A DNA stretch of 64,000 nucleotides from a virus (IMGVR_UViG_3300044450_000310); one strand, 5' to 3'; numbered from the stretch's first letter, positions 259 to 60,296 are shown. The notes: generated by a model from the letters alone, not told the origin. A program made the numbers and translations.

Positions 259-270
259 GTGTGTTTGTAT
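259..270 (-). repeat. ATACAAACACAC motif copy 1 (12-mer core)
   Basis: GTGTGTTTGTAT on + strand, 8 nt upstream of ATG at 250. Confidence 0.9.
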
Positions 271-299
271 TCGATTTAGAGACGGAAATGTACTAATCT

Positions 300-716
300 C
301 TAAGCAAATACCCTAGCTGGCGTAAGTGGAGCTTCAAGAATTTCAACACCATCAACCAGTGTTAATTCATTCAGCTCATCCTCGAGTTCACCAGCTCTAT
401 TATCATACTCTACAGGGAATCCTTTTTTCTTTGTATCAATGAGACGAACATTCAAATGCACTTCATCGGTTAATACCGGTGCTGTTATCTCATTTCCATC
501 TGAATCATAAGTTCCAGGAGTTGCTACTAATTGACCTACAAAGTCTATGGCAAAGCCTTTTCCAGCTTGCGCAAAATCATCATCAACAATGAAGCCCTCG
601 ATCGGTCGTAACGACTCGATCAGATCTTCTTTGGAGTTTCCTACTAAATATTTATCAATTATGTTTGGTTGAGTTTTCATGGTTCGAGTCCTTTTGTTAT
701 CATTAATTGCATTCAA
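300..716 (-). CDS. Hypothetical phage protein, probably virion-associated
   Basis: ORF track; ITAPVL..VHLNVRL segment resembles small ORFs that accompany lectin-like tail genes (recollection); start could be 680. Confidence 0.6.
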   Translation of the reverse strand: MNAINDNKRTRTMKTQPNIIDKYLVGNSKEDLIESLRPIEGFIVDDDFAQAGKGFAIDFVGQLVATPGTYDSDGNEITAPVLTDEVHLNVRLIDTKKKGFPVEYDNRAGELEDELNELTLVDGVEILEAPLTPARVFA

Positions 717-748
717 TAGTTAGCACTTCCTGAATGCGTTTTAGGTCA

Positions 749-773
749 AATGGCTCCTTCGGGAGCCGTTTTT
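749..773. terminator. Hairpin ATGGCTCC-TTCG-GGAGCCGT followed by T-tract on + strand
   Basis: 8-bp stem, UUCG loop, directly at the stop of 772..2160. Confidence 0.65.
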
Positions 774-2160
774 ATAATGGCACTATTCTCTTTTCAATAA
801 ATCCTCTCTCGCCTCTCTCGCACACTGCAAATCCACTCATTGAGCTCCACCCATTATCAAGTGCATAATCATTAGGAACCACTACTGATGGAATACCAAA
901 GCTGGTGTAGCGAATGGAGTCATCATGTACTTGCTCTTGATGATTGTGTGCATTCACCATCACATTGAATAAACGCTGATCCCCATATTCCATAATGAGT
1001 TTAGATGGAAGCATTTTAGTGATGCGCTTATCACCATGAGTGAAGATGTACTTCACTTTATCGATAGTTGGATTTAATACCCGGTGATGAAAGTGAATCT
1101 TTAGATTTGTGAAGTTGGTGAAAGTGCCAGCAATTAGCTGCGCAACTTGGCCTCTAGAGTCCTGTTCTTTTTTGTCTGTGATTCGATCATGATTACCACC
1201 GATGAAGAATACATCTACTAATCGGTCTATCGCATAAAAGAATTTCTTGAGTGTTTCAGTTGTGCTTAATACCAACTCCGCACCATGAGATTCAATCTGC
1301 TTCCATGTGTTAGGCTTATTATTACCAGTGAATGACTCAATAAAATCACCAAGGAATACAATGCGCACTGGTCGACCAGGATATTTACGATTCACATAAT
1401 CTGCGATGTACATCAACCTAGCTTCACACTCCTTCATGTTGTAATCAGGAACAAAACCTTCTCCTTCAATAAGAGCTCCGTTGTGTAGATCTCCTATTAT
1501 TACAACCACATCTTTACCCGATTTAACGGTTTTAAACTTGGCTTTCTTAACGTCTTTGTTCCATTCTTCAAACCATTTCTGATAGTATTCAGGATCAGGC
1601 TTCTCAAAATGCTTCCTAACAACTTGAGCCCTGACTTGGAAGAGCTGAACAATACCTACACTTCCATCGGGTTTTTTAAAGAATCCTTCCCAAGAGTTCT
1701 CACGGTATGAATCAATACCCCAAATATCAGTATCAATTTCCCCAGTCTCTATTAACTGGTCGAGCGTTTTGATTCTCAGACTTTCACTTGCTACTTCAAA
1801 ACCACGTTTACCATTTATCTTTTCGAGTTTATCTCCTTTATATATGCCTCTATTAGTTTCATCGTTGGCATACTTAATTTCACCGCTTTTAGGATTATCA
1901 CCGCCTCTTTTTGGTACTGGTGGCGTTCCTACTGGTGTAAATGGAATATTCTTTGCTTTTGCTATTGCACGTATTAATCGAAGAGTTTTTTCACTCTTTA
2001 GTGTACTAATGTGAATTAACCCGGCTAATTTCTTTCGACCTATATAATGTGGCTCTCCATAGTTCCTCAGAATATCAGGGATATAATGTAGTATCTCATC
2101 AGTGCCAGCAAGATCAACAACCTCTTGAAACACCTGTTGATACTCTTCAGGGTAACTCAT
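772..2160 (-). CDS. Calcineurin-like metallophosphoesterase with long N-terminal extension
   Basis: Motifs GDLH, LGDFIE, GGNHD, THGD, AHNH in the expected order. Confidence 0.85.
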   Translation of the reverse strand: MSYPEEYQQVFQEVVDLAGTDEILHYIPDILRNYGEPHYIGRKKLAGLIHISTLKSEKTLRLIRAIAKAKNIPFTPVGTPPVPKRGGDNPKSGEIKYANDETNRGIYKGDKLEKINGKRGFEVASESLRIKTLDQLIETGEIDTDIWGIDSYRENSWEGFFKKPDGSVGIVQLFQVRAQVVRKHFEKPDPEYYQKWFEEWNKDVKKAKFKTVKSGKDVVVIIGDLHNGALIEGEGFVPDYNMKECEARLMYIADYVNRKYPGRPVRIVFLGDFIESFTGNNKPNTWKQIESHGAELVLSTTETLKKFFYAIDRLVDVFFIGGNHDRITDKKEQDSRGQVAQLIAGTFTNFTNLKIHFHHRVLNPTIDKVKYIFTHGDKRITKMLPSKLIMEYGDQRLFNVMVNAHNHQEQVHDDSIRYTSFGIPSVVVPNDYALDNGWSSMSGFAVCERGERGFIEKRIVPL

Positions 2161-2164
2161 CTTT

Positions 2165-4111
2165 TTATAGAGATAGGGTTTTTGTTAGAAGCTGAATCGT
2201 AGCATCGTCATACGCTTTCGGGTAGTAGACTATTCTCTTAATCCTACCTTGTAGTTGAGCCGTATCACCCGCATGACCTATATGAAGTCGGTTAAATCGG
2301 GAAGTAAACTCAGTTGCTTGAACAACCGTCTGAATATCACCGCCATTTACTGAATATCGAACAGTATCTTCATCAGGCATAATGGCAAATGCCATTTTGA
2401 AAAAACTATCAATTGTAGCGTTAGTTATCTCTTTAAATGAATTAACATCCCCTTTCTCAAAGTAAATCTGAATATTTGGATCACTTGCGCCACGTCTTTG
2501 AATCTGAAGCCTATTTGTTGCATCATCACCTTGTAAGTACAAGTATCTTTGAAAGAGTGAACCCGCACCTAGATCATTGTTTTCAGCTTCGATTACAAAG
2601 GTTCCTTCTGACTGGTTATAGAAATCACTGAAAGCACTACCATCAATTGAAGCTGTGTCTTTTACTCTCGTAGCGGTAGCCATAGCATATACATCGACTG
2701 AACGGGTTACAGTTGATCCTGAAGTTGGAATGTAGGATGTTCGGTACGCACCTAATTCACACTGGAATCCAGCCACAAAGAAATCGGCTCCCTGTGTGCC
2801 ATCAGAAACATTACTATTATCACACTGACCAAGCCTAAACTCAAAAGATGTGTCTAAAGCTGTGAAAACAAGTTCGAACAGAAATATACCAGCGCCTACC
2901 TCAGTGACACGAACATCATCAAAAAATCCGCTAGTAAGTATTCCCGATGCGACTTTGTCTGTAAAATTAAACTTGCCACTATTTGAACCCTCACACCTTA
3001 AGCCTATACATTCCGAAGTTCCCGCTTCCGCATAAAAGCTAATGCAATACTGGCTAGACGCTACTACTGGGATATATTCTCTTAAATAGTTTAATCCTGA
3101 ACCAGATATTCCCCCAGTTCCAGTATTCGTAACTCGAACCCTTGTAATGCCTAGTAAGGTTCCGCTATTGCTCCATGAAACATTAGCATCTTGCCACGAT
3201 GTAAGATTTTCTGAATTTTCAAATAAGTTTGTAGCACTTTCTTCCAAGAGCAAACCAGCCGAAACCCATTGACCATTGTGTCTTTTGTATTGTTCTGTTA
3301 CCTCTTCATAAACTGAGGCAAGCTGATGATCTCCGTTTGAATCTTGGTAATACTTTGTTGATGCACGTGAAGTGAAGGTTGGGATTGTAGGGATGTAGCT
3401 TGTTGGAAAATCACCTTGTTCAAGCTGTGCGCCCCAAACATAAATACCCGAAACTCCATCACCACTATAAGAAAAAGAAGAGCCATTATGAGTACATACC
3501 CTAACAGTAGATGTAGTTGAACCACTTGCTGAAGTAGTAAATACAGCCCAACATCTATACCAACCATCACGCACAGGCTCAATACCCACTGCATCGGCAC
3601 TAGAATTAGTAGCAGTACCAGTTGTTAAATCAAACCAAGCTAATGAGATAAATGAACCGTCTTTATCTTGTAATCTTAGTCCCGCATTTCTTCCACCCTC
3701 TTTAAAATAGCACGATAATACATAAGTAGTAGAGTTTGATAAGGTAACAGCTTCTTGAGCTTGATGAATATTACTAGCTGTATTTTCAATAAGCTTTGAA
3801 GCATTAATTTTGCCATTAGGCGCTGTTACTACGTTAGGTATCCAGCTAGATTGTGAAGCAGTCCATTCTAAATTAAAAAGCTCACTAGCCCGTACTAAAT
3901 TCGTCCGTTGCTCTTCTATCAACAACCCTAGAAGCTCACCTGTAACCGGATCATAATCTAATCTTGGAATGTTATTACCAACCGTCTCGATAAATCCATC
4001 GGCATTAACAACAGTCGCTTCAGAGGCTCTATCAAACAGAATCTTAGAATCATCGAACTCATTTCGATCAAAGAGAAGTGCAAGTTTTGAACGTACTGAT
4101 AATAGTCCCAT
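2165..4111 (-). CDS. Lectin-like virion fibre/spike protein (two CBM-like repeats plus LamG-like C-terminus)
   Basis: PRLDYDP.TGEL.GLLIEE.RTNL; two GxQxExG..xTSYIPT motifs; paralog of 4114..6042. Confidence 0.7.
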   Translation of the reverse strand: MGLLSVRSKLALLFDRNEFDDSKILFDRASEATVVNADGFIETVGNNIPRLDYDPVTGELLGLLIEEQRTNLVRASELFNLEWTASQSSWIPNVVTAPNGKINASKLIENTASNIHQAQEAVTLSNSTTYVLSCYFKEGGRNAGLRLQDKDGSFISLAWFDLTTGTATNSSADAVGIEPVRDGWYRCWAVFTTSASGSTTSTVRVCTHNGSSFSYSGDGVSGIYVWGAQLEQGDFPTSYIPTIPTFTSRASTKYYQDSNGDHQLASVYEEVTEQYKRHNGQWVSAGLLLEESATNLFENSENLTSWQDANVSWSNSGTLLGITRVRVTNTGTGGISGSGLNYLREYIPVVASSQYCISFYAEAGTSECIGLRCEGSNSGKFNFTDKVASGILTSGFFDDVRVTEVGAGIFLFELVFTALDTSFEFRLGQCDNSNVSDGTQGADFFVAGFQCELGAYRTSYIPTSGSTVTRSVDVYAMATATRVKDTASIDGSAFSDFYNQSEGTFVIEAENNDLGAGSLFQRYLYLQGDDATNRLQIQRRGASDPNIQIYFEKGDVNSFKEITNATIDSFFKMAFAIMPDEDTVRYSVNGGDIQTVVQATEFTSRFNRLHIGHAGDTAQLQGRIKRIVYYPKAYDDATIQLLTKTLSL

Positions 4112-4113
4112 GA

Positions 4114-6042
4114 TTAGGTAGTTAAATCGATTAGTAATTGATCAGCTAAAGCAACGGGGAAGTAGACGAGGCTTTTGAGAATACCATTAAACCAGTGATC
4201 GGTTGAATGATTGGAATAACCAATGAAAAGCCCATTCACAATAACAGTCTCACCATCCAAATCCTGTCCAAGCTTAACTCCATCAACGAACAAAGCGAAT
4301 CCGTTTTCCTTGAGCGTGATAGCTAGCTTTATATCTTGTCCGGGAGTAGCCGAAGAAAAGACAAGGTCACACTGGTCTACACCTTCTTTTGTTACTAACA
4401 ACTGGAAACTTCCAGTGTTATCAATGGTTAATAATATTCTATTAGCCGTTGATCCATCTTTGTTTAATTCAATTATTCGATGAATTTGACCTGAAATGTA
4501 TTGCTCGGCACGAACTGTTGCTAAAAACGTTCCTTCATCCTGATTATAAAAATCATCTAGGATGCTACCTGATATAAATGGAGTATCAGCACTTCTTGTA
4601 GCCGTTGCAGTAGTGTAGACATCGGCTGAACGAGTTACTGCGGAACCGGAAGTCTCAATGTATGATGTTGGATAATACCCTAGCTCAACTTGTGCGCCAT
4701 ACAAATAAATCCCTGAACTTCCATCACCGAGATAGGTAGGATCAGCGCCATCTACACAACCGATATGAAACTGGTTATCTCCAACATACGTTGACGTGAA
4801 TGCCATCCAAACCCTATACCAGCCATCCGTGTATTTCTCAAAACCGTACCCATTAAGATCAGTTGAAACAAGTGGTGTAATTGTTTCCGTATCAAACTCA
4901 AATCTAATAGAAGCCCCTTCATTACGATCTTCCAGTAGTCGAACATTGCGCCCATTAGATTTTACAAAAACACTTGCCACATAATCAGAAACCCCATCAA
5001 GTGCTACATTTCTTCGCATTCTATGAACAGAATTACCAGTGTTTTCAACTACTTGATCAGCCGTTAATACGCCATCAGGTGCATTCGCTACATTTGAAAC
5101 AAGACTACAACCTGACTGTCCCCAAGCACTGAAGCCAGCACTAAAAGTTTGCTCATTCGTTGCAGAAGCCTCCATTAATAAGCCAGTAGGAACATATTGC
5201 CCATCTATATAAACATGATGATTGTCACGAGCCTCATCGATTGAAGCGGTTTGAAGCACACCATTTGCATCGGTATATCGAGCAGTCGTAGCACGAGAAG
5301 TGAAGGTCGGGATTGTTGGGATGTAAGAGGTAGGAAAAGAGCCTTCTTCAAGTTGTGCGCCCCATAAATAAATACCTGAAACACCATCGCCAGCATACGT
5401 TTTATTGTGGCTGTTTGAATTAGTCGTTCTAAATTCCATCCTTGCGGATGTTGAATCGGCTGTAAATGCCATCCACACTCGAAAGATATTATCAGCAAGC
5501 TCTTCATACCCATAATCAACCAAACTACCCGCTTTATCTTCGGCAAAATCTTTTTGATTGGTTCTGAAAGCTATTGCCGCATTGTCATTCACATCTTCAC
5601 GAATAGCAATACCACGATTATTTACCCCTTTGAAGTAAACACTAACTGTATAGGTTAAGCCAATTGTAAGCCCCGATTGAACATCCTCAACACCATGTTC
5701 ATCGTTTGCAGTGTTTTCTTGTAGGTATCCGGCTGTTACTTCATTGCTTAATAAATTGAGTTTTCTCGGAATAAGAGTTGCTTGTGAAGTAACCCAAGCA
5801 TCCGTATTAAATTCACTATCAACTATTAAGTTCGTTCTACCCTCTTCAATCAGTAGTCCTTTTAGCTCTCCTGTAAATGGATCGTAATCTAGTCTAGGTA
5901 CATCGTTAGCAACCTCTTCAATCTTTTTGAATTTATTAAACCTCGTAGCTTTAGAGGCACGAGAAAAGGAAACTACATTCTTGGCAACATTGCCACGATT
6001 AGGTAGGAATTGAAGGGAAGACCGTACTGGTAGGGTAGACAT
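4114..6042 (-). CDS. Lectin-like virion fibre/spike protein, paralog of 2165..4111
   Basis: Same architecture; shared block GDGVSGIY.WGAQLE.G.FPTSYIPTIPTFTSRA. Confidence 0.7.
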   Translation of the reverse strand: MSTLPVRSSLQFLPNRGNVAKNVVSFSRASKATRFNKFKKIEEVANDVPRLDYDPFTGELKGLLIEEGRTNLIVDSEFNTDAWVTSQATLIPRKLNLLSNEVTAGYLQENTANDEHGVEDVQSGLTIGLTYTVSVYFKGVNNRGIAIREDVNDNAAIAFRTNQKDFAEDKAGSLVDYGYEELADNIFRVWMAFTADSTSARMEFRTTNSNSHNKTYAGDGVSGIYLWGAQLEEGSFPTSYIPTIPTFTSRATTARYTDANGVLQTASIDEARDNHHVYIDGQYVPTGLLMEASATNEQTFSAGFSAWGQSGCSLVSNVANAPDGVLTADQVVENTGNSVHRMRRNVALDGVSDYVASVFVKSNGRNVRLLEDRNEGASIRFEFDTETITPLVSTDLNGYGFEKYTDGWYRVWMAFTSTYVGDNQFHIGCVDGADPTYLGDGSSGIYLYGAQVELGYYPTSYIETSGSAVTRSADVYTTATATRSADTPFISGSILDDFYNQDEGTFLATVRAEQYISGQIHRIIELNKDGSTANRILLTIDNTGSFQLLVTKEGVDQCDLVFSSATPGQDIKLAITLKENGFALFVDGVKLGQDLDGETVIVNGLFIGYSNHSTDHWFNGILKSLVYFPVALADQLLIDLTT

Positions 6043-6051
6043 GACAAATTA

Positions 6052-6087
6052 GATTGAGTTTCCTCAACCTTCTTCGCCACAGGAACA
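6052..6087 (-). promoter_or_regulatory. Hairpin-containing element copy A (TGTTCCTGTGGCGAAGAA-GGTTGAG-GAAA-CTCAATC)
   Basis: Near-identical inverted copy at 19329..19369; 7-bp stem with GAAA loop about 10 nt upstream of ATG 6042. Confidence 0.45.
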
Positions 6088-6193
6088 CCTTAATTTAGCG
6101 ATTTATTGGCAGAAAAGTCAAAATGACTCGTCTTTGAACTTGTTCCTTATTCATTTTGTTTCGTAAACTTAGCCAAAATCAAATTACGCTGTC

Positions 6194-6739
6194 ATGAAGA
6201 GACTACTTTTCCTACTAATTCTAGTTACTACAAGTATCCAGGCACAAACTTTAGAGCTTTATTCAGGATACTCAACAATTCTAAATCCTACCGTTTTTTC
6301 GGATTCTTACTCTCCATCATTTACTATTGGCGGAAGTGCAACACTACCGATGCTTGGAAGAGTAAACGTTCAGCCATTTGCAGATTACTCTCATTACAAT
6401 GGTGACATTGACGGTTCTGATTTCTCATACATTATTAATGCTGGATTTAATATAAAGGCTGACATCCTAAAGACTCGGTTACGCCCTTATCTCCTATCTG
6501 GAATGTCTATCAGCTATCAATTCAATGATAATGCTCGATTAAATAAGCTTGGATTAAATATTGGATCAGAATATGACAATGTTCAATGGAGCCAGCGACT
6601 TCAGGCAGGATTAGGTATATCATTCGATATCAATGATACCTTCCACATATTTACCCAAGGCACTTATGGGTACACTCCTCAGACCGCAATCAACCTAGAA
6701 GAAGGATTTGTAGTTGCTGGTATTGGTTACTCTCTCTAA
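6194..6739 (+). CDS. Outer-membrane beta-barrel protein (OmpA/Lom/Ail-like moron)
   Basis: Signal peptide MKRLLFLLILVTTSIQA; alternating amphipathic strands; C-terminal GIGYSL resembling a beta-signal; opposite strand to all neighbours. Confidence 0.8.
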   Translation: MKRLLFLLILVTTSIQAQTLELYSGYSTILNPTVFSDSYSPSFTIGGSATLPMLGRVNVQPFADYSHYNGDIDGSDFSYIINAGFNIKADILKTRLRPYLLSGMSISYQFNDNARLNKLGLNIGSEYDNVQWSQRLQAGLGISFDINDTFHIFTQGTYGYTPQTAINLEEGFVVAGIGYSL

Positions 6740-9700
6740 GGAGAATAAGAAGCAAGCTCTGTAATTTGCTTGAGTTCTCCACCAATTACCCAATGTAGTA
6801 ATAGTCTGTAATCGCCTCCCGCATCCTTAGTTGGATCACTCCAAATAAGCACCGCTTTATTTGTAGCATCATTAGGATCTACCACAGCAATACTTTCAAA
6901 GGCTCGGATATTAGAGGCATCAAAAGAAGTTTTAGTGATATGGGCCTTTGGAAGAATTTCATGTGCGTGAAGACTGTAGAAATCCCAATTCGCAAAACCT
7001 GTATATCCATCAGTATATATTTGAACTCTAAACTCATCGAAGGCTGGATCGGTAAAAAATACAACTGGAACAGTGAAATCAATGTATTGCCAAGCACCGG
7101 AAAATGATTGAGAGGTGCAGGCATCCAGTGACTTAATAGTTCCCCAAGTACCACCTGTCTTTCTAACTTGAATAGTTATAGTTAAATCAGATGAACCCGC
7201 AGAATTGGTTTTCATATAGATTCGATCAATTTTTATGTATCGACCAAGCGGTAAATCAGAAGTTAGTAAACCGCTTTGTCCCCATTGTATTATTAAAGGA
7301 CTACCACCATTGGTATTTGGTAACCCATCATCAACAATAGTATCAAATTCGGCTGTTTCTTGAATGGTATAATCATTCAGTACACCGTCTTCATCAGAGA
7401 TTTTAACCGCTTCATAGTCGGTGCCATCTCTATCCTCATCTTTGATAATAATTCTAGGATTATCGCCACCATGAATTTCTAAATCACCACGAACAAGCTT
7501 TTCAGAACTATTAGTTACGCCTTGCGCACCTACTTCTAAGCCACCAATGTAGGCTCTTTTAACTGAAACAACTCCAATTTTATCAAATGCCCAACCTATA
7601 GTACCAGGGTTAGTCATGTTTCCTGAACCATTAATTGTACCATTCCAATTGTCAGACTTCATTTGATTGGCTGAAAACGTAAATCCGTCCATGTCTTGAG
7701 TAAGCTCAGAAGCCACATCACCTACACTAACTTTTGAAGTGATCGATGTAGCATTTGCCACAATAGATGCCTCGGCAGTTACTAATCGACTATCAATACC
7801 ATCTACTTCAGTTTGGGTAGCTCTTAACCCGATATCGGTTGCATTCTGAGTGATGGAAGTCTCAGCCGTAGTTACTCTTCCATCTATGTTGGAAATATTA
7901 GTAACATTCGTTGCAATGTTTGTGGCATTGATTGAAATCGCAGAAGTATTACCAGTAACAGTGCCAGTTAGAGTATCTACCTCCGCTTGCGTAGCTCTTA
8001 GAGTAATGTCAGTTGCATTCTGAATAATCGAAGTCTCAGCAGTTATCAATCTTGTACCTATATCCGATACATCTGAAACTATTAATGCAATGGAAGCACT
8101 ATTTACTGAAATCTCTGCACGATTTACCCGAATCCCTTCCTCACTACCTTGAGTGATGGTATCAATCTCAAAAGCCAGTAATTGAATATTCTCCGCAGTC
8201 TGAGTGATCGATGTTTCCGCAACAGCTAATCTCCCATCGATACTGCTGATATCGCTTACATTGGTGGTAATGCCAGTCGCATTTACAGCAATTGAAGCTG
8301 TATTTGTCGCAACATCCCCTGAGATCGTATCAACTTGAGACTGATTTGCTTTAAGAAGGATATCCGAAGCATTTTGAGCAATCTCGGTAGTATGATTTGC
8401 AACAGTGCCCGAAATAGTATCTACTTCAGATTGATTAGCTTTTAAGGCTATATTTCCAGCATTTAAAACAATGGATGCTTCAGCCGAAGTAACACGACCT
8501 TCTATAGTATCAACTTCAGTCTGATTTGCCTTTAGTGCAATTGCACCAGCATTTACTAAGATATCAGCTTCAGTAGTCGTAACTCTTCCAGTGAGTGTAT
8601 CTACATCAGATTGTGAAGCCTTGAGAGCTATATCAGTCGCATTCTGAATTATGTTAGTTTCAGCAGAGTCTACACGTCCAGTTAAAGTATCGACTTCTGA
8701 CTGCTCTACTTTCGTAGCAATCTGATTAGCCTGTACTATTAATGTTGCTTCATTGGTTGTTACTCGACTTTCAACAAGATCTACATCTGAAGTCAATGCA
8801 CGAAGAGCAATTTGCTGAGAATTAACCTCAATGGATGCTTGGTTTTCTAAAACCCGTTCTTCATTGCCTTGAGTCACAATATCTAACTCTAGCGCCAATA
8901 GAGTGATGGAGCTTTGAGTTTGATTAATTGAAGTCTCTGCTGTAGATACTCTACCTTCCAGGATATCATAATCTGTCTGATTTACTTTTAACAGAATATT
9001 TGAAGCATTCACCGCAATTAAAGCCTCGGCATCGGTAATTCGCTGAGTCTCAATATCTAAATCTGATTGATTCGCTTTCAGTGCAATTTGAGTAGCATTT
9101 GCCGTGATGGAAGTCTCTGCCGTGGTTAATCGAGTATCGAGAATATCGACCGAAGATTGTGTAGCTCTCAGTGCAATTTCACCAGCATTCACTACAATTG
9201 AAGCTTCAGCCGTTGATACTCTACCTTCGATAGTATCTACTTCTGTCTGTGAAGCTTTCAAAGCAATCTGACCAGCATTCACTACAATCGAAGCCTCCGC
9301 AGAGTCTACACGTCCAGTTAAAGTATCAACCTCAGTTTGTGAGGCTTTCAAAGCAATCTGACCAGCGTTTACTAAGATATCAGCCTCGGCGGTAGTTACT
9401 CTAGTGTTTGTAGAGTTCAAACTTAACTGAGAAGCTTTTAGTGCAATATCATTAGAATTAACCGTGATGGATGCTTCCGCAGAGTCTACCCTGCCTTCAA
9501 GGGTATCCAAATCAGTTTGTGAAGCCTTTAATACGATCTGACCAGCTAATTGAATAATCGAAGTTTCATTGGCAGTTATTCGACCTGTCTGAGTATCTAA
9601 ATCTTCTTGTGAGGCTTTTAAAGCAATAGAATTTGCATTCTGCGTGATGGATGTTTCCGCACTGGATACCCGAACTTCAACCGCATCAAATACCGTTTGT

Positions 9701-12700
9701 GAAACTTTGGATGCAATTTCACTAGCTTGAACTACCAAAGTAGATTCATTTACCGTCACCCTTCCTTCAACATTATCTAATTCCGTCTGATCAGCCTTTA
9801 AAACAATTGCTTGAGCATTTACTTCAATACTCGCTCGGTTAGAAGTGATTCTTTCTTCACTTGCCTGTCCGATTGTATCTAACTCAATGGCTAGAATCTG
9901 AATGTTTTCGGCGGTCTGAGTAATCGATGTTTCAGTAGTATCCACCCTTCCTTCTAGGGTATCAAAATCAGTTTGCTCTACTTTGGTTGATATCTGTCCA
10001 GCTTGAACAGTCAACGTTGCTTCGGCAGTAGTCAATCTACCATCAACACCATCAAGTGCTGTTTGATTAGCTTTTAATGCAATATTACCCGCATTTACCA
10101 AAATATCGGCTTCTGCAGTATCCACCCTTCCAGTCAGAGTATCCACACTAGTTTGTGAAGCTTTCAGTGCAATTTGCCCCGCATTAACAATGATATCTGA
10201 TTCCGCAGTATCAACACGACCAGTTAGGGTATCTACCTCGGTCTGATTCGCCTTCAGAGCAATATTCCCTGCATTCACTAGGATTGAAGCCTCGGCTGTA
10301 CTTACCCTTCCAGTTAGAGTATCAACTTCACTTTGATTGGCTTTTAATGCGATATCACCAGCTTGCACCAGTATAGTAGCTTCAGCCGTTGAAACTCTAC
10401 TATCTATAAGATCAACATCAGTCTGATTAGCTTTTAGAAGAATGCCTTGCGCATTAACCTCGATGGATGCAGTGTTTTCAATAACTCGCTCTTCAGTTCC
10501 CTGACTTGTAATATCCAGCTCAAGGGCAAGAAGCGTTATTGATTGAGCATTCTGAGTGATGGAGGTTTCAGCCGTATCCACTCGACCTGTTAGGGTATCA
10601 ACATCAGTCTGACTGGCTTTTAATGCGATATCTCCCGCATTTACTATAATAGAAGCCTCTGCACTGGTTACTCTTCCATCAATGGTATCAACCTGAGTTT
10701 GATTTGCTTTCAGTGCAATATTTGTGGTATTCACTCCAATGGATGAAGTATTGGAAGAAACTGTAGCTGAAAGGGTATCTACTTCAGTTTGATTGACTTT
10801 AAGGGCAATACTGGTCGCATTTTGAGTGATCGATGTTTCAGCATCCGTCACTCTCTGTTCAACTAAATCAAAGACAGATTGTTCAACCTTAGTCGCAATC
10901 TGACCAGCTTGGACAACAATCGAAGCCTCGGCGGTAGTTAATCGAGTATCAATTGCACCTACTTCAGTTGTAGTCGCACGAAGCGCAATATCTGTAGCAT
11001 TCTGAGTAATCGAAGTTTCCGCAGTATTTACTCGACCTTCTAACACATTGAAGGTTGAAGTTTCAACCTTTGTCGCAATCTGACCAGCCTGAACAACCAA
11101 CGTAGCCTCCGCAGTTGTCACCCGACTATCAATCGTATCCACTTCAGTTTGTGAAGCCTTTAAAGCAATCGCAGTTGCATTAACTACGATATCCGCTTCA
11201 GCCGTTGTAACTCTGGCCTCAAGATCATCATACGCTTGAGTCTGAGGAGAAACTTTACCAATCTCAAAGACATCTAAGTCAAAATCATCGCCGGAACCCT
11301 CACCAACATATAAACGAATACCGGTAACAGTACCCGTCCAATTGGTTTCATTCATCACATCAATGCGAGATACATTGAATATATCAGGATCAGCAGGAGT
11401 TGGCATTGCCACCTGATACCAGTTGGTCCCGTCCTTAGTGTATTCAAAAGCTACTCCCCATCCAGTACCCGCAATTCTCTGAAGTCGCACATAGATAATT
11501 GAGTTATCAGAAGTATCAATGGATAGTCCTGTTTTCTCGATATAAGCTCCCGAAGCTGTTGGATCTACATTAAGTGTGTAGGAACCTGTGGTAAGAGTCG
11601 CATTTGTACCAGTAAATCCTTCATCAGTGTTTAAAAACTGAAAACGAACCGCAGGAGTAAGAGCATCCAGTACCTCTGCAATTTGCTGGTTTACTTCTGT
11701 CTTTGTAGCTCGTAAGGTGATATCTGAAGCATTCTGAACAATAGATGTCTCAGTATCAGTAACCCGTTGCTCTACGATATCAAAATCAGTTTGAGTTACC
11801 CGAAGCGCAATTTCATTGGCATTAACCTCAATAGATGCTTCATTTTCAATTACACGCTGTTCATTACCTTGATTTACTAAATCTACCTCTAAAGCAAGAA
11901 GTGTAATCGATTGCTGAGTTTGCTGAATATCGGTTTCAGTTGTGGTTACTCTACCATCAATACTTACCAGGGAAGCTTCTGCGGTATCTAATCTGGACTT
12001 TGCATTTACAATCTCTGTTTCCGCATCCGAAATAGCTGTTTCAGCCGTAGTCAATCGTCCTACATTGCTTGAAATAGTTGCTTCCGCAGTATCAAGTCTT
12101 GTTTTAGCTCCATCTATTTCAGAGTTCGCAGTTATAATATCCGCTTGAGCTGTTGCAATCAGCCCTTGATTCGCAGTGATATCACCTTGCGCATTAGTTA
12201 TATCAGTTTCAGCAGAATCCAATCGGGATTTAGCTGAAACAATTTCAGCCTCCGCTTGAGTAACACGGGTTTTTGTTACTGTAATTTGCTCTTCAGAACT
12301 TTGAGCAATGACATCTAATTCTAGTGCCAATAACTGAGCATTATCAAACGCCGTCTGAATATCAGTTTCAACGGTATCAATTCTTCCTTCAGCCGAAGAA
12401 ATAAGAACAGCCTGTGCATCTATCTGACTTTGAGCAGAAGTAATAAGTGAAGCTTGAGAAGTAATCGTTGTTTCGGCGCTATCAAGCCTACCTTGGGCCG
12501 TTACTAAGTCAGCTTGCGCCTGTACAATATCTGCTTCCGCTTGTACAATTTGAGCCTCCGCATTTGCAATCAAAACTCCTTGATTGGCAATCAGAGCTTC
12601 AGCAGAATCGATATCGATAATTGCTTGATCGATTTGCCCTTGAGCTGTAGCAAGAGTCGTATTAACTAAATCAATAGCAGATTGTTTCGCATCCAGCGCA

Positions 12701-13968: not shown

Positions 13969-13973
13969 TGTAC

Positions 13974-18005: not shown

Positions 18006-18008
18006 GAT

Positions 18009-19959: not shown

Positions 19960-19964
19960 TGGTA

Positions 19965-42050: not shown

Positions 42051-42122
<72 letters not shown>

Positions 42123-50382: not shown

Positions 50383-51932
50383 TAAGCTACCTCCGCAATT
50401 ATTTCATTCATGTATAGTTTATTTGTCAAAGCTTCCATCATTGCTTGCACAACCGCAGGAGGTACAGAGTTTCCGATGAACTTCTTCTGATCCGCTTGAT
50501 TGCCAGCTAAGTAGTAATCTTCTCCGAATCCCTGAATCTTCTTGAGTTCAGGTACACGTAGCATTCGAGTTGTGATATCAGTAATACCATACTCCTGACA
50601 AAATTCTTTGATCTTCACCATCATTGGAGAATCTTCAATATCGATTTCAGGAACTTCACCATGAGAAGCGCTTACCAGTGAAGGAGCACTTTTATCCATT
50701 GAAGCAATCAGTGTGAAGCATGGAGAATCAATAGAACCACCTTTAGAATTGTACTGAGGATTCATGATGAAATGATTACTCTTTGCGCTCACTAAATTGT
50801 GCTTCGGAACTGAAGTAATTGTATTAGCAGGAGCATCAATTGAAGAGTGCTGTCCACCATTTGAATACTGCATATCTAGGAAAGAACACTGAGCCAACAT
50901 AAACCCGTCTTTGGTGCGAATTGTACCTGAGGGCTTATTGATTGATTCTACATTATCTCCATTGCCGTAATACTTGGTACTGAATGCGCCTTTCACTTTA
51001 ACTACACTTTGATTCGCTGTAGTTGTGATGCTGTGAGCTGGTTGATTTACATCATACACTTTGCCCCAAGGTCTGCCGGAGAAATGCTTTTGAATGAATA
51101 CTCCATCGCCTTTGGCAACATACTTATTCAATCCCGCCAAGATTCGTTTTAATGTAGCCTCAACTAATGGCTTTTTGCGAGTGAAAATACTCTGTCCTTC
51201 ATCCTGAAAGTCCAAGCATTCACGAACTGCATTCCAAGGCTTTAACTGGTCGAACAATCCATCATTTTGAGGATGTTCAGCATGAGTTGGAGAAGGCCAT
51301 ACAATCGGGTTATCTCCTTTAGAAAAGATTCCAAACAATCTACGGCGCTTGGTATGAGCACCGAAATCCGCACTATTCAATACATTTGCATCGTAAGAAT
51401 ATCCGTTGCGCTTAATCTTATTCGTCCATTTGATATAATCAGCACCTTTCTTCATCGATACTGGTCGACCGTTTTCATCTAATGGCCCCCACGCCATAAA
51501 CTCTTCTACATTCTCGAAGTAAAAGAAGTCAGGATCGATAGCCTCAATGTAATTGTGCATATACTCAGGAAGAGAACGTGAGTCTGCATCTCTAGGCATT
51601 CCACCTTTTGCTTTTGAATAATTAGTGCATTTCATGGAAGCCCATAAAAGAACGATCGCTTCAGGATACTTCTCCTTCCAGTAGCGTGTAATCTTAGCAG
51701 TTTGAGCAACTACTTCTTCACTTCGGATATCTTCATTGAAGTGAATTGCTTGTTTGTGATTGGTCTTATGAGATTCGATTGCCAAAGGATCGTGATTCAC
51801 GCAAGCAATCAATTTAACTGGTCTATATTTCCCTAAAATTCGTGCTCTGTCGGCACCAGTGGATACCCCACCAGCACCGCAGAACAGATCGATAAAAAGG
51901 ATTAGCGGTAATTTCTGTGTGTTTGTATTCAT
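50382..51932 (-). CDS. DNA cytosine-5 methyltransferase
   Basis: IDLFCGAGG, catalytic Cys in WASMKCTNYS, FENVEE, RRRLF, IGNSVPP. Confidence 0.92.
   Translation of the reverse strand: MNTNTQKLPLILFIDLFCGAGGVSTGADRARILGKYRPVKLIACVNHDPLAIESHKTNHKQAIHFNEDIRSEEVVAQTAKITRYWKEKYPEAIVLLWASMKCTNYSKAKGGMPRDADSRSLPEYMHNYIEAIDPDFFYFENVEEFMAWGPLDENGRPVSMKKGADYIKWTNKIKRNGYSYDANVLNSADFGAHTKRRRLFGIFSKGDNPIVWPSPTHAEHPQNDGLFDQLKPWNAVRECLDFQDEGQSIFTRKKPLVEATLKRILAGLNKYVAKGDGVFIQKHFSGRPWGKVYDVNQPAHSITTTANQSVVKVKGAFSTKYYGNGDNVESINKPSGTIRTKDGFMLAQCSFLDMQYSNGGQHSSIDAPANTITSVPKHNLVSAKSNHFIMNPQYNSKGGSIDSPCFTLIASMDKSAPSLVSASHGEVPEIDIEDSPMMVKIKEFCQEYGITDITTRMLRVPELKKIQGFGEDYYLAGNQADQKKFIGNSVPPAVVQAMMEALTNKLYMNEIIAEVA
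51916..51928 (-). repeat. ATACAAACACACA motif copy 7
   Basis: Exact; lies just inside the annotated start (codons 2-6, MNTNTQ). Confidence 0.85.
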
Positions 51933-52006
51933 TTCTGTTCTGTTTGTTAGTATCAGGTTCTTACATCAATATAATTTAAAATTTTATTTGATGCAAGTAT
52001 TTATTT

Positions 52007-53246: not shown

Positions 53247-54081
53247 TGTTCTGTGTGTTTGTATTCTTTTTATTCTTGAAATCGCTGAACCAGCTCTTTT
53301 GCTTGGCTATGTAGAACTTCCATCCTGTATGATGGATTAAGGTGCCATTAGGTGCCCACTGATAACTATTCACATGATTCCAAAGATGTTCAGCAAATTC
53401 TTTGGAATAGCGGTTAATTAAACACTCTTCTATGAACGTTGATTGATTCGGGTAGTAGTCAGGGTTAATAACAGGAACATCATCAGCTTTTCGAGTAAGG
53501 ATAGGAGAACCTAAACCTATATCAGCTCCAATGATAGCAACCTCCGTGAGCGCCGGAGCACTTCCATTGTTTAGTTCTTGATCATTCTTATCATTATTGT
53601 TTGTTCCGCTTTGAATCTCGTCAACGTCTTGCACTAAGTTGCTTGGCGGTGCAAACAAAGGTGAATCCTGAATCGCATCCGTGTCGTTTTGCGACTCGTC
53701 AACGTGTTTTTTATCCTGATAAACCTCATAATTACAGATGGTTAACCGTGTCGTAGTCTTTAGGTTCTCCGTGACTATCATATCGTCAGACTTGAGCAGA
53801 TCAAAGAACCTTCGAACTTTATCTTTGCCCCACTGCCAACGGTTTCCCCACTCCTTCATACTTCGGACAGATTGACCACGATCACAAGCTACCAGCCCAC
53901 CTTTAATGCGAACTTTCTTAGGCTTATGATTTACTTCTAGGATAAGATCAATCCACGCTTCAAATTCAGTGAACTCTCTATCAGAAGGATACAACCAGTG
54001 ATTCTTTGTGCTTCTGTACAGCTTAATCCAGCCTTGGATGATATTTTCATCAAAGTTAGACTTAATCATCACACTCACCAT
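53164..54081 (-). CDS. Phage replisome organiser / replication initiator
   Basis: GWIKLYRS..HWLY..EAWIDLIL..RGQ..RW.W..VRRF..TRLTICNYE N-terminal family pattern. Confidence 0.8.
   Translation of the reverse strand: MVSVMIKSNFDENIIQGWIKLYRSTKNHWLYPSDREFTEFEAWIDLILEVNHKPKKVRIKGGLVACDRGQSVRSMKEWGNRWQWGKDKVRRFFDLLKSDDMIVTENLKTTTRLTICNYEVYQDKKHVDESQNDTDAIQDSPLFAPPSNLVQDVDEIQSGTNNNDKNDQELNNGSAPALTEVAIIGADIGLGSPILTRKADDVPVINPDYYPNQSTFIEECLINRYSKEFAEHLWNHVNSYQWAPNGTLIHHTGWKFYIAKQKSWFSDFKNKKNTNTQNNASTIKHTSVGDFSEQLDRLDQVPTIQ
53252..53264 (-). repeat. ATACAAACACACA motif copy 8
   Basis: Exact; inside the 3' end of the upstream CDS, 5 nt before ATG 53246. Confidence 0.9.
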
Positions 54082-54762: not shown

Positions 54763-54774
54763 GTGTGTTTGTAT
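54762..54774 (-). repeat. ATACAAACACACA motif copy 9
   Basis: Exact; last A is the A of ATG 54762. Confidence 0.9.
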
Positions 54775-55086: not shown

Positions 55087-55576
55087 GGTATAGCTCCTTT
55101 AAAATGTGTGTTTGTACATATTCGCATGGTTCATAACTCCCATCTAAGTAGGAATTAACGGTATCCATCACTTCATCCCCATTCCAGCAGACTTCTATTG
55201 CATATCCTTCCAGCCACATATCCACCAGGAATTGCTTTTGATCTTCATCGGGATAGTTGCTCCGCTTGTACTTCGGAATACCTTTTACAATATCAGTCAA
55301 CTTTTCTGACTTCAGCTCAATAGCTAATCCACCATACCCGTGAGCCATCTTGAAAATGAGCATATCACTTACTCCTTTTCTCACTCCCATTTGTCTGAGC
55401 TTATTTCCTTCAGGAGAAAACATCCTCCCATTCTTACCCTTCCTCACTTTCGTTTTACGCTCATTAGCTACATGAGTAAAGTTGAGCTTTTTGATAGTCA
55501 GGAAATTAGCTGTGAACTTCGTGAGCTGTTCTTCATTCATTCCTACATGAAACTTTTTTACCGGAGAATTACTCAT
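55070..55576 (-). CDS. VRR-NUC family nuclease / resolvase-like
   Basis: HVANE...GVRKGVSDMLIF..GLAIELK...Q..FL PD-(D/E)XK pattern. Confidence 0.85.
   Translation of the reverse strand: MSNSPVKKFHVGMNEEQLTKFTANFLTIKKLNFTHVANERKTKVRKGKNGRMFSPEGNKLRQMGVRKGVSDMLIFKMAHGYGGLAIELKSEKLTDIVKGIPKYKRSNYPDEDQKQFLVDMWLEGYAIEVCWNGDEVMDTVNSYLDGSYEPCEYVQTHILKELYHERAS
55105..55117 (-). repeat. Motif copy 10 (one mismatch, GTACAAACACACA)
   Basis: Inside the VRR-NUC 3' end, 18 nt before ATG 55086. Confidence 0.75.
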
Positions 55577-55729: not shown

Positions 55730-56167
55730 TCATGATATTACCTCCACTTTGAAATGTTCATCGAGATACCAAGTGATTGTTGCGATAGATCTATTCATCA
55801 CAGAACCAATCTCTTTTAAAGTGTATCCTTTATCCTTCAGATTTTTGGCTACAGCTTTTCTCACTCTCTTCACATCATCACCCGTGATTCGGGAAGTCAC
55901 AGTTTCAGGTGCCATTGCTAATCGACCACAAGCACGATTGAAATTTGCTTTAAGATTAGCCCTTCTTCTTCTGTTACTTAATAATTTTTCCTTATCAGGA
56001 TTAAACTCTTTAGCATTCTCAAAACTCATGTAATGTTTAGCCAGAGATACCGCTTGATTTGCGCTTAACTCATTTCTCTCACCCGAAGGAATAATCACTA
56101 CTTCAGGTGCTCTTTTTGCCGTTAATCCTTCTGTCAGCTCAGTTAGTATTTCTTGATCCAGTCGCAT
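55730..56167 (-). CDS. HTH DNA-binding protein
   Basis: C-terminal GYTLKEIGSVMNRSIATI. Confidence 0.7.
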   Translation of the reverse strand: MRLDQEILTELTEGLTAKRAPEVVIIPSGERNELSANQAVSLAKHYMSFENAKEFNPDKEKLLSNRRRRANLKANFNRACGRLAMAPETVTSRITGDDVKRVRKAVAKNLKDKGYTLKEIGSVMNRSIATITWYLDEHFKVEVIS

Positions 56168-56669: not shown

Positions 56670-56682
56670 TGTGTGTTTGTAT
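56670..56682 (-). repeat. ATACAAACACACA motif copy 11
   Basis: Exact; 12 nt before ATG 56657. Confidence 0.9.
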
Positions 56683-56747
56683 TGATTTAGGAAAGAGGAG
56701 TCAGCCTTTCACAACTGCTCCACACTGATACTAACTATATATCTATG

Positions 56748-57283: not shown

Positions 57284-57296
57284 TGTGTGTTTGTAT
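57284..57296 (-). repeat. ATACAAACACACA motif copy 12
   Basis: Exact; 5 nt before ATG 57278. Confidence 0.9.
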
Positions 57297-57477
57297 TAAT
57301 TGTTGGGAAACAGGAAGAAAGGCTACCAACCTAACTTCCAGCCATTCTCAAATCTGCCAGTATTCGCCTACTGACAATCTTCTGATACTAACCTAAACAT
57401 TGAAATAGAAGCCTGCCCATCACGACAGGCTTCACGGGGTTTTAGGGGTACAATAAATCAATCGGGAAAAACACCAT

Positions 57478-58212: not shown

Positions 58213-58402
58213 ACTAACCTCCGAATGGTAATTCTTGTTCTTTAGCATCCGCTTGCCAGTTACCCATATCGATAGCTGGTTTACCGTCTGCAGTCACTAG
58301 CTGACCATTCTTTAAGTCCACATCGATTTCAGGTTGCTCTTCGAAATTGTCTTGAACAATGTGCGCATCCTGAACCTGATTGGCTTTTTCTTGATCCTGT
58401 TG

Positions 58403-59347
58403 CTATTTAACCAAGAACTGAGAAAGATTACTCACTAGATAAGAAAGAGCCGAGTACGGCAAATCCATCAAGTCTGTAGTAACCTCTTTCATGTACTTTT
58501 TGGAAGCTACTTTAGCAAACTCAACTTTCTTAGTTGTCCACTCCGCACCGTAGGCTTTCTCACCAAGAGCATTCACATCCTCAAGAGCCTTACCCCATAA
58601 TTCGGATTGTGATTGATCGGTGATTCCGTGATCTGTTACCACACCATCAGAATCAGCTTCAATAGTTTTAGTGTAATCACCATTGATGTTTCCTTGAAGT
58701 TCTTCCAAGTCTTGAGTAAAGATATCTGAAGCTCCCGTTGCAGTAAGAATACCATCAACATGAGCACGTTTTTTACCCATCTTCAGAACCGTATTGAAGG
58801 TATCGGCGATATCAGGATTTTCAACCCTTTCTCCGTTTCCTACCACTCGAACTACTTTCCAAATATTATCAATCTTTTTGCGCTTGTATTTACCAGTACC
58901 AAACTTTTTGACTAGGTAAGCATCACGATCCTGCGGATTATCTTGAGGTATATTCCAATACCCTTTATCAATATCACCAACTACTTCTTCTTTGTATTCT
59001 TTTCGCCAGCGATACTTTGATTCCATGGTCGAACAAATACCCACACCTTGACCAATTATATCTCGCGTATTAATATGAGTGAGCGTACAAATAATCTCAT
59101 ACTCTCGGTGCCCATTGGGAAGATCTTCTTTTTTAATGGTGTAGCTTGGTGAAAGACGAAACAGTACAGAAAGTTTTTCTGCTCCCGCCTTCAGCAAGGT
59201 TGGTTTATTAGTTCCAGGGATTTTGCCGAAATGCTCACCCGCCTTCATAACCGATTTCATTGCTTTTTGGATCACCTGTGCCTGTGCATTTAAACTATCC
59301 ACAGATGCAGGCTCACCAATAGCAATAAGTTGCTTCGAATCAGACAT
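58403..59347 (-). CDS. Putative single-strand annealing recombinase; frame continues past TAG to 58214
   Basis: GKIPGT.KPTLLKAGAEKL..F.L and NTVLKM..KRA.VD..L.ATG.SDIFTQDLEE; lies between Gp157-like and exonuclease genes. Confidence 0.7.
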   Translation of the reverse strand: MSDSKQLIAIGEPASVDSLNAQAQVIQKAMKSVMKAGEHFGKIPGTNKPTLLKAGAEKLSVLFRLSPSYTIKKEDLPNGHREYEIICTLTHINTRDIIGQGVGICSTMESKYRWRKEYKEEVVGDIDKGYWNIPQDNPQDRDAYLVKKFGTGKYKRKKIDNIWKVVRVVGNGERVENPDIADTFNTVLKMGKKRAHVDGILTATGASDIFTQDLEELQGNINGDYTKTIEADSDGVVTDHGITDQSQSELWGKALEDVNALGEKAYGAEWTTKKVEFAKVASKKYMKEVTTDLMDLPYSALSYLVSNLSQFLVK

Positions 59348-59348
59348 C

Positions 59349-60236
59349 TTAGAATCCTCGAAGTCCGTCCTTCACAGTTACATCAATACCCGTTAAAGGC
59401 AGATGCTCTAATCGGTGCTTTAATTCAGCAAAGAACTTATCCTGTTCTTCATCTTCCATATCTTCAGGATCAAGCCCGTCAAACTCTTCAATAAGCTCAG
59501 TTCTGATTTCTCTGCGCTCAAGCACTCGTGCTCGTACAAACTTGTTTACCTCACCCCCTGTTGCAAAAGAGTAATTCGGTAATACTTCTGACAATTCTGA
59601 GGACAGGTTCAAACAAGCTTGAATCATTGGAACAGGATCAAAAGCGATTGGCTCTCCCGTTTCCTCATCGGATGCTTGACCAAGCACTGAGCATAAGGTT
59701 GCTCTTAACTTGCGTAAATGTTCGCCACCAATATTGTAATGAACACTAGCAAGTCCATGCTCTGAAAGAGTATCGTATGCTTGAACTTCATCGGTGATGG
59801 TGCCAGTAATACTCTCAGTTACAATTATATTCTTACCGTCAACTTTCACTTTTCCTTCAGGAAGAGCCTTGACGATTAGAATTACACGATCTTTTAGTCT
59901 CTCAAGATCGTTTTTTCGAGCATTTTCAGTATCTCTAAATGAGTCAGATTGACTCTTGTACATATCCTTGACAGCCTTGGAAGCCACCACTTGCTCATTT
60001 ATCTTGTCTTTCACCCAACGCATTGACTGAACCTTCCCTTCAAGAGAATCTTCAGTTTCAATTAATCGTGCCTGAAGCTCATTGAATAATTCTTCAAAGT
60101 TATCAGGCTCTTCAACTAAAAGCTTTTGCATTTCAAACTTGATAGCGCCAGCATCTTTCAGCATATCGAAAGAGGTCTTTTTTCTTTCAACTACTTCCAC
60201 AGTCTTAGTGTTTTCTTCAATTGTAGTCTGTTGCAT
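59349..60236 (-). CDS. Siphovirus Gp157-like / Gam-like coiled-coil protein
   Basis: N-terminal coiled coil LEGKVQSMRWV...RKNDLERLKDRV; recombination module position. Confidence 0.6.
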   Translation of the reverse strand: MQQTTIEENTKTVEVVERKKTSFDMLKDAGAIKFEMQKLLVEEPDNFEELFNELQARLIETEDSLEGKVQSMRWVKDKINEQVVASKAVKDMYKSQSDSFRDTENARKNDLERLKDRVILIVKALPEGKVKVDGKNIIVTESITGTITDEVQAYDTLSEHGLASVHYNIGGEHLRKLRATLCSVLGQASDEETGEPIAFDPVPMIQACLNLSSELSEVLPNYSFATGGEVNKFVRARVLERREIRTELIEEFDGLDPEDMEDEEQDKFFAELKHRLEHLPLTGIDVTVKDGLRGF

Positions 60237-60278
60237 TTTGTTCTATTTTGGAATTTATGCACATCCCGCTCGTCGGTA

Positions 60279-60291
60279 TGTGTGTTTGTAT
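60279..60291 (-). repeat. ATACAAACACACA motif copy 13
   Basis: Exact; 42 nt before ATG 60236, just after a 9-bp hairpin. Confidence 0.9.
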
Positions 60292-60296
60292 TCATG

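Follow-up and report, generated by a model that had tools for sequence, protein, structure and literature searches.

The 64,000-nt stretch of DNA analysed here (the window) comes from a prophage of a marine Balneolaceae bacterium and carries an A/C-only 12-mer, ATACAAACACAC, in 13 exact copies, all on the minus (sense) strand. The 12-mer forms the invariant core of a longer, strand-specific element (about 20 bp), which lies before the first gene of at least 13 expression units and marks their 5' edge. The reading that we favour, tentatively, is that the element is a compact, phage-specific promoter/5'-leader cassette.

Copies of the element and their placement

The initial annotation had counted 12 exact 12-mers and described the giant gene as free of them; a recount gave 13, the additional one (32416–32427) lying inside that 4999-aa gene, and placed 11 of the 12 earlier coordinates one base too low. 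The one single-mismatch copy it had listed is present on the minus strand (55106–55117), but there is a second on the plus strand (63898–63909), which corresponds to the related leader noted earlier at the integrase start. The recount agreed on eight full 15-mers, on the minus-strand position of every exact copy (13/13) and on a copy-free stretch at 271–19965. At up to one mismatch, 15 copies were found against 0.4 expected from shuffles, and 0 of 100 shuffles reached 15. Extra matches at three mismatches came to about the chance number, so that sites are either near-perfect copies or absent. The core CAAACACAC occurs 14 times on the minus strand of the window and 0 times on the plus strand. 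Conservation covers about 20 nt, from about −5 to +14, in the form aAtnA-ATACAAACACAC-ATa, and the sequence further upstream, including −35, is not conserved. The individual copies are as follows.

259–270, minus: exact copy with TT, not AT, as the next two bases; 8 nt to the ATG of a 74-aa ORF (26–250)
19966–19977, minus: full 15-mer, 10 nt past a 12-bp terminator stem (19988–20015) that is itself downstream of the capsid gene; 6 nt to the ATG of a 192-aa gene
22426–22437, minus: full 15-mer past a 16-bp terminator stem (22455–22491); 10 nt to the ATG (22415) of the scaffold-capsid operon
22895–22906, minus: full 15-mer immediately next to the stop codon of the portal gene; 12 nt to the TTG of a 77-aa ORF
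32416–32427, minus: exact 12-mer with non-consensus flanks at codon 2473 of the 4999-aa polyvalent gene, in a region encoding a disordered G/S/T/D-rich linker; next in-frame ATG 206 nt on
42025–42036, minus: exact copy 13 nt past tRNA-Met (42050–42122); 6 nt to the ATG of a 167-aa gene heading the unit of the 554-aa, giant and portal genes
45935–45946, minus: full 15-mer past a hairpin and T-run; 14 nt to the ATG of a 168-aa gene in a unit with metallopeptidase, TerS-like and TerL genes
51917–51928, minus: exact copy forming codons 2–6 (NTNT) of a C5 DNA methylase, whose ATG is 4 nt upstream of the copy; ACAGAAAT is duplicated, one on each side
53253–53264, minus: exact copy within the 3' end of a DnaD-like ORF; 6 nt to the ATG at 53246
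54763–54774, minus: full 15-mer filling an 18-nt intergenic gap; the 12-mer runs straight into the ATG
55106–55117, minus: one-mismatch copy (GTAC...) within the 3'-terminal part of the preceding ORF; 19 nt to the ATG
56671–56682, minus: full 15-mer past an imperfect hairpin; 13 nt to the ATG of a 101-aa gene
57285–57296, minus: full 15-mer in a 199-nt gap, at its far end; 6 nt to the ATG (57278) of a Tad2-like gene
60280–60291, minus: full 15-mer directly past a 10-bp GC-rich hairpin (60296–60321), the first copy downstream of the lysis-lysogeny switch region; 43 nt to the ATG of a 295-aa gene
63898–63909, plus: one-mismatch copy ATACTAACACAC in the integrase leader, overlapping a second repeated word, GATACTAAC; 10 nt to the ATG at 63920

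For the 12 exact copies beside starts and both one-mismatch copies, the end of the 12-mer lies 0, 6, 6, 6, 6, 8, 10, 10, 12, 13, 14, 19 or 43 nt from the start codon, with −16 for the methylase; 6 nt is the commonest spacing to an ATG. The claim that every copy is beside a start codon thus holds for these and fails for 32416–32427. Copies had also been reported in the 3' ends of upstream ORFs, and were found inside or abutting them at 53253, 55106 and 22895. Within intergenic gaps the copies are at the start-codon end (combined p 0.004–0.007), and in seven or eight cases nothing else is conserved between a terminator-like hairpin and the start codon that follows it. Density is highest in the early region, with 8 copies in 8.4 kb, and copies are sparse in the late operons. 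At the plus-strand integrase gene the copy is flipped, its orientation following gene direction. The general proposal of a sequence-specific, strand-locked cis element at gene starts in both early and late modules is upheld, and a literature search, like the initial annotation, turned up no description of it. As possible roles that annotation had named a translation signal, a protein-binding site and a processing or antitermination box, favouring none.

In three close relatives (L120, L121 and L122), the core CAAACACAC is kept 4–8 nt before the same start codons. The 22426 position is retained in L120 and L121 and the 22895 position in all three, and the junction between the portal gene and the variable region carries a copy in four phages. 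The variant is uniform within a genome and differs between genomes, being AATACAAACACAC here and AATCAAACACAC in L120 and L121. A more distant relative has one motif copy in 43 kb. Every other public contig with this phage is 100% identical, and a search of IMG/VR for the exact 15-mer gave nothing beyond single chance matches in unrelated contigs. Capsid protein searches found no relatives in IMG/VR and GTDB genomes and two short, distant loci in JGI metagenomes; a phage genome collection held no DNA match to this phage.

The initial annotation had proposed that an equal frequency before host genes would mark the motif as a host habit. Across 121 Balneolaceae genomes it occurs at most twice per genome and seldom adjoins a gene start, so we rejected this explanation.

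A proposed promoter with leader, or a possible signal in the RNA

As a promoter/leader cassette, the element would set the transcription start of each unit, or a restart past an intrinsic terminator, to the conserved A after ACACAC or its vicinity. The unit's first gene would then have a very short, G-free, unstructured leader without an SD, and genes further down the unit would rely on an SD or on translational coupling. Because the element is unlike the host −33/−7 promoter and is missing from host genomes, a phage-encoded specificity factor that acts on host RNA polymerase would be needed; a candidate is one of the uncharacterised early HTH proteins.

Among Balneola tRNA genes the host −7 box, TAnnTTTG, stands out, being exact in 13 of 24 and reading TAnnTTTA in several more, with the form TAT(A/C)TTTG. 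In the Bacteroidota housekeeping promoter (−33 TTTG/−7 TAnnTTTG) this box precedes the transcription start by about 5–7 nt. The motif contains no such −7 box, and a host-type promoter inside it was rejected. In the window TAnnTTTG is scarcer than expected (42 vs 56). A sigma-70-type consensus scan of three regions gave promoter-like sites that were not enriched over shuffles.

Several observations argue for the promoter reading. The element is sharp, compact and of one orientation, with a block from −5 to +14 and nothing at −35. Its copies sit between terminators and start codons, as at the 16-bp and 12-bp stems; the surroundings of T7 gene 10 have a comparable layout. Dense early and sparse late copies are the distribution expected of phage promoters. 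The host −7 box is missing before most lytic units and the motif heads SD-less first genes, while the word is not a host habit and its core is conserved in close relatives.

Other observations speak against it. A transcription start at the element's 3' end implies leaders of 0–14 nt, whereas Flavobacterium johnsoniae transcripts are mostly leadered (PMC6847099). The methylase ATG is upstream of the motif. At only two sites does a host-like −7 box of the TAnnTTTA variant lie 5–8 nt upstream (TACTTTTA, ending 8 nt before the 19966 copy, and TACATTTA, ending 5 nt before the 45935 copy), which would put the start at the motif's 5' end and make the motif a transcribed leader. One promoter common to early genes, late genes and integrase would give no temporal control, and the commonest 6-nt spacing suits a translation signal at least equally well.

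Such a signal, acting once transcribed as an SD-independent start site or as the binding site of a translational regulator, is a possible explanation that we rate below the promoter reading. The motif would keep the ribosome landing zone single-stranded, possibly bound by S1 or by a phage RNA-binding protein; this is compatible with a promoter lying upstream. The position of copies near the start codon within gaps is significant, as given above, and the 6-nt spacing here has its counterpart in the 4–8 nt of the relatives. Motif and SD are nearly mutually exclusive. Motif-led genes come first in their unit and lack an SD (mean pairing −0.7 vs −4.1 kcal/mol, p = 0.003), pairing to the anti-SD being about zero at their starts; the only motif-led start also bearing an SD (AAGGAG) is that at 55106. 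Two motif-led leaders exceed 14 nt; that of 19 nt has an SD and that of 43 nt has none. The host is itself SD-poor, with an SD at 6 of 38 genes. Start regions led by the motif are much less structured (unpaired probability 0.67 vs 0.47, p = 5e-6), and how open the start region is ranks among the main determinants of initiation in SD-poor Bacteroidota (PMC6847099). Some copies are also found at internal genes whose gaps are tiny, and one overlies the methylase's first codons; degenerate A/C-rich leaders such as ACAGAACAATG are found in relatives and before other genes.

However, a generic unstructured leader would not require that 12–15 bases be the same at 13 sites, or that matches fall off so sharply, and the motif is unused by the host. 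The most abundant protein, capsid, relies on an SD instead: its gene, second in its operon, has a strong one, as do internal genes like it. Nor is A kept at −3, where it is known to act as a positive determinant, and no phage RNA-binding protein was identified. Pairing with 16S rRNA, a route suggested by the initial annotation, was rejected, as the best duplex with Balneola 16S (−8.6 kcal/mol) is no better than the shuffled-motif mean (−8.7 kcal/mol).

Candidate phage factors and less probable readings

The promoter reading calls for a factor, but Pfam and PHROGs scans of about 45 of the 55–60 ORFs, which took in every long ORF but three late-region genes of 133–210 aa and not several small late-region ones, turned up neither a phage RNA polymerase nor a sigma or NusG-like gene; this counts against a promoter. 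A DxDGD motif is absent from all called minus-strand ORFs, and the scanned ORFs contain neither an NGN nor a KOW domain. For the 145-aa early protein (55730–56167), language-model and structure-based searches gave leads, and leads only, to the DnaA C-terminal HTH; Pfam gave no Bac_DnaA_C match at E<0.01, and the single-sequence AlphaFold model was poor (pLDDT 47). A CI-like 150-aa protein gave weak leads to XRE-type repressors, had no sequence match in the PDB, and also modelled poorly from a single sequence (pLDDT 44).

These two proteins bear on a further reading, which we consider unlikely: that the motif is a DNA site for a phage regulator, in a genome-wide network of the kind formed by L5 stoperators or by the C1 operators of phage P1, which are dispersed and asymmetric. 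Each copy would be bound by a monomeric HTH protein, of which the 145-aa protein is one candidate, so as to silence or switch on every unit. Cluster A mycobacteriophage operators and stoperators (L5 gp71, TipsytheTRex repressor; PMC9283540, PMC6550527) likewise consist of an asymmetric word of about 13 bp in many copies, locked to the direction of transcription and placed in short gaps or over start and stop codons. Where the L5 type has an asymmetric site of 13–14 bp, the temperate prophage has an asymmetric word of 12–15 bp, likewise in many copies oriented with transcription (13 exact and 2 near copies, the integrase copy flipping with its gene). The uniformity of copies within a genome, with a different variant in relatives, fits such a site, as does the lead to the DnaA HTH, a reader of an asymmetric 9-mer. 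Compared by eye, the motif and the DnaA box 9-mer TTATCCACA, to which DnaA domain IV binds, have only the box's CACA end in common.

An L5-type site also doubles as operator at the early lytic promoter next to the repressor gene, but the divergent switch region here (61041–61107), the expected operator place, contains no copy. The nearest full copy ends at 60291, a truncated ATAACACAC lies near 60683, and the region has its own GTTAAC-ATTAAC repeat. XRE-type repressors as a rule bind palindromic sites, and the CI-like protein gave only weak leads to that type. No repressor like gp71, the two-domain monomeric immunity repressor whose family reads L5-type sites, was detected, and the host belongs to a different phylum. 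Moreover, a roadblock of the L5 type, in which the bound repressor halts elongating RNA polymerase, need not hug the start codon in long gaps, yet the copies do, and the missing SDs of motif-led genes are left unexplained.

We give still less weight to the idea that the motif is the phage's private translation-start code, in which a phage factor would recruit ribosomes to unit-first genes through the A/C leader while internal genes use the SDs that are rare in the host; the phage tRNA-Met, which is atypical and initiator-like, would perhaps be involved. Least probable of all is that no trans-acting factor exists and that each word merely provides a short stretch of homology linking modules at their junctions, recombination having spread the words and kept them uniform, with the leaders tolerated as harmless (or, in a variant, that the words are RNA-processing cleavage sites): copies do flank accessory cassettes (Tad2-like, methylase, small ORFs), one marks the junction of the conserved portal gene in four phages, another lies in the giant-gene linker as though two ORFs had fused there, and the phage encodes an exonuclease beside a gene first read as a recombinase (PHROGs: no function), but 12–20 bp is short for homologous exchange, recombination requires neither strict sense orientation nor closeness to start codons, and no exchange events are visible among the public copies, because all are identical.

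Relation to known systems and significance

Prophage-wide oriented motifs are a known kind of feature. For the promoter reading, the comparison types are promoters of phage single-subunit RNA polymerases, such as T7 class II/III promoters, and the −10-only late promoters of T4 gp55. Like these, the element is a contiguous, near-identical block of about 20 bp without a −35 box, before early and late units, including directly before the capsid operon, and after terminators. It differs in that the scanned ORFs hold no phage RNA polymerase or sigma gene, that the phage is temperate, and that leaders would be almost absent, since the start codon is 0–14 nt from the block.

The CAA-rich omega leader of TMV and CA-repeat enhancers are SD-independent translation enhancers. 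The motif shares with them, and with the unstructured A-rich starts of Bacteroidota (PMC6847099), an A/C-only unstructured sequence directly before or over the start codon of SD-less genes in an SD-poor host. Those enhancers depend on composition and are degenerate, whereas the motif is an exact 12–15-mer unused by the host. As with the ops element of RfaH and with the UpxY proteins of Bacteroides, a 12-nt sense-strand element is found in the leaders of operons whose genes lack an SD, but ops lies early in a long leader, whereas the prophage copies follow terminators beside the start codon, and the scanned phage ORFs include no NusG-like gene.

Gene expression in phages of Balneolaceae and other SD-poor Bacteroidota is poorly known. 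An exact word 0–14 nt before SD-less first genes, with strong SDs at internal genes, makes a clean test case for how transcription units are marked and ribosomes recruited without an SD. Were the element a promoter, it would be a compact, portable 20-bp part and would point to an uncharacterised specificity factor; should it instead act in RNA, it would represent a rare kind of start signal, specific in sequence and independent of the SD.

Motif copies and their position

The A/C-only 12-mer ATACAAACACAC was found by motif search in 13 exact copies in the window, every one on the minus strand, and in two one-mismatch copies, at 55106-55117 on the minus strand and at 63898-63909 on the plus strand; the mean for shuffled sequence was 0.4 matches. 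The initial annotation had counted 12 exact copies, at coordinates mostly one base low, and had placed none in the giant gene. However, the copy at 32416-32427 sits within the 4999-aa gene, at codon 2473 in a disordered G/S/T/D-rich linker. Eight copies carry the full 15-mer, as had been stated. The window's minus strand holds 14 copies of the core CAAACACAC and its plus strand none. Allowing three mismatches added about the number of matches expected by chance, so copies are either near-perfect or absent. In an alignment of the sites, conservation extends from about -5 to +14 (aAtnA-ATACAAACACAC-ATa), and no conserved sequence was found upstream of about -5.

A start codon adjoins both one-mismatch copies and 12 of the 13 exact copies, the exception being the copy at 32416-32427. 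Measured from the 12-mer's end, the start codon is 0-19 nt away in twelve copies, most commonly 6 nt, and 43 nt away in one. Within gaps, copies lie at the start-codon end more often than expected under uniform placement (combined p 0.004-0.007). The methylase copy encodes codons 2-6. Across 51917-51960 the motif encodes the first methylase codons, MNTNTQ, with ACAGAAAT(G/T) duplicated on either side, and it looks as if an older leader had been absorbed into the coding sequence.

Seven or eight copies come after terminator-like hairpins, including a 16-bp stem before the scaffold-capsid operon and one of 12 bp behind the capsid gene. A terminator likewise precedes the 19-kb tail operon, which nevertheless carries no motif copy. 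Directly upstream of the first motif copy is a 10-bp GC-rich hairpin (60296-60321), which has the form of a canonical terminator on the plus strand only, where there is a T-run; in the sense direction it lacks a following U-tract.

Phage, host and relatives

The window is a podovirus-like prophage with the following recognisable genes.

SU10-type capsid protein and P22-type portal
Large terminase
4999-aa polyvalent protein with DarB-like, methylase and helicase modules
C5 DNA methylase, Tad2-like protein, DnaD-like loader and RNase T-type exonuclease
42050-42122, minus strand: tRNA-Met (CAU anticodon)

The end of the tRNA-Met (A1 x C72) is unpaired, and its anticodon stem has just two G-C pairs at the base; it looks like an atypical initiator, and a motif copy lies 13 nt after it. 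In another assembly of the same DNA (L126:1-8200; window 63920 onwards), the prophage junction is visible: the 403-aa integrase lies next to host genes of a Balneolaceae bacterium, namely a PAS histidine kinase and thrS-infC-rpmI-rplT-pheST. The host ThrS shares 82-93% identity with proteins of Balneola and Balneolaceae. Other contigs with this phage were all identical to the window.

The 3.6-Mb genome of Balneola sp. EhC07 has a single copy of CAAACACACAT. None of 121 Balneolaceae genomes has more than two occurrences of the pattern AATNCAAACACAC (62 matches, against 25 for the reversed control), and only three of 30 host matches inspected were just upstream of a long ORF. The motif is thus no host habit, and the outcome that the initial annotation had named as a refutation, equal frequency before ordinary host genes, did not occur.

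[quoted passage not shown] The multi-copy system is therefore specific to this phage and those closest to it. The motif variant (AATC- or AATAC-) is uniform within each genome and differs between genomes. In L163 (1040-2320), three consecutive early genes share an identical start region, GAGGTAGAATAATG, a repeated SD-type (Shine-Dalgarno) cassette in place of the A/C motif.

Motif-led and SD-led starts

Motif-led starts pair weakly with the anti-SD (mean -0.7 vs -4.1 kcal/mol, p=0.003), and a strong SD precedes one of 13, against 12 of 41 other phage genes. They are also much more open (unpaired probability 0.67 vs 0.47, p=5e-6), in part because the motif consists of A and C only. Within the scaffold-capsid operon, the first gene (scaffold) has the motif and the second (capsid) a strong GGAGGT. 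Strong GGAGG-type SDs go with internal, non-motif genes, such as those at 21349, 41505, 49315, 50382, 55576 and 55733. SD sequences are richer among these phage genes (about 12/41) than in Balneola-like host DNA, where six of 38 genes near thrS have one, in agreement with the known Bacteroidota pattern (PMC6847099).

Candidate functions

At host tRNA genes the Bacteroidota -7 box TAT(A/C)TTTG was exact in 13 of 24 cases, with several more carrying the variant TAnnTTTA, and in measured cases lay 10-13 nt before the mature tRNA 5' end (L166-L195, tRNA surroundings in Balneola sp. EhC07); Balneolaceae therefore use a Bacteroidota-type promoter. We rejected the motif as such a host promoter. The box is below expectation in the window and absent before most lytic units. 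TAnnTTTA ends 5-8 nt before the 12-mer at 19993 and 45959 only, where transcription would start at the motif's 5' end. Pairing with rRNA was also rejected, complementarity to Balneola 16S rRNA being no better than chance, as was a switch operator, since 61041-61107, between the Cro-like and CI-like genes, holds no copy.

We tentatively rank first a compact phage-specific promoter-plus-leader cassette, which would best fit the exact 20-bp block, the placement past terminators, the lack of host promoters, the early-region density and the use by each unit's first gene. Its weak points are the very short implied leaders, the methylase case and the lack of a specificity factor: scanning of phage ORFs revealed no gene for an RNA polymerase, a sigma factor or a NusG-like protein among those covered. 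Second comes a start signal or regulator site that acts in RNA and independently of an SD; possible but somewhat doubtful, it best fits the spacing, SD scarcity and openness, but leaves motif exactness and host non-use unexplained. It is compatible with the promoter cassette, and both may hold. A network of regulator sites resembling the L5 stoperators (PMC9283540) is unlikely: asymmetry, orientation and lineage-specific variants all fit, but the operator at the switch is absent and nearness to start codons is unexplained. Recombination linkers or RNA-processing sites are quite improbable.

For a 145-aa early protein (55730-56167, minus strand), leads from language-model and structural comparison point to the C-terminal helix-turn-helix (HTH, domain IV) of DnaA; as a candidate motif binder it is only a lead, and many small viral proteins resemble it. 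A truncated motif, GAATAC, stands just before its ATG, past a terminator-like hairpin. Other candidate HTH proteins of the phage are encoded at 49635-50144, 60324-60647 and 61107-61559. The window also holds four exact copies of a second repeated word, GATACTAAC, three of them as the 11-mer CTGATACTAAC.

51946-51954, minus strand: GATACTAAC
56727-56735, plus strand: GATACTAAC
57384-57392, plus strand: GATACTAAC
63897-63905, plus strand: GATACTAAC

It runs in the sense direction in the integrase and methylase leaders, which are alike overall, and has its orientation reversed in the two gaps preceding the Tad2-like and 101-aa genes; possibly it is a further regulator site.

We found no description of the motif in the searchable literature; dispersed oriented prophage motifs are already known as stoperators and phage-specific promoters. 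What is unusual is an exact A/C-only word that nearly abuts start codons lacking an SD, in a host itself poor in SDs, and motif-led starts next to SD-led internal genes in one phage.
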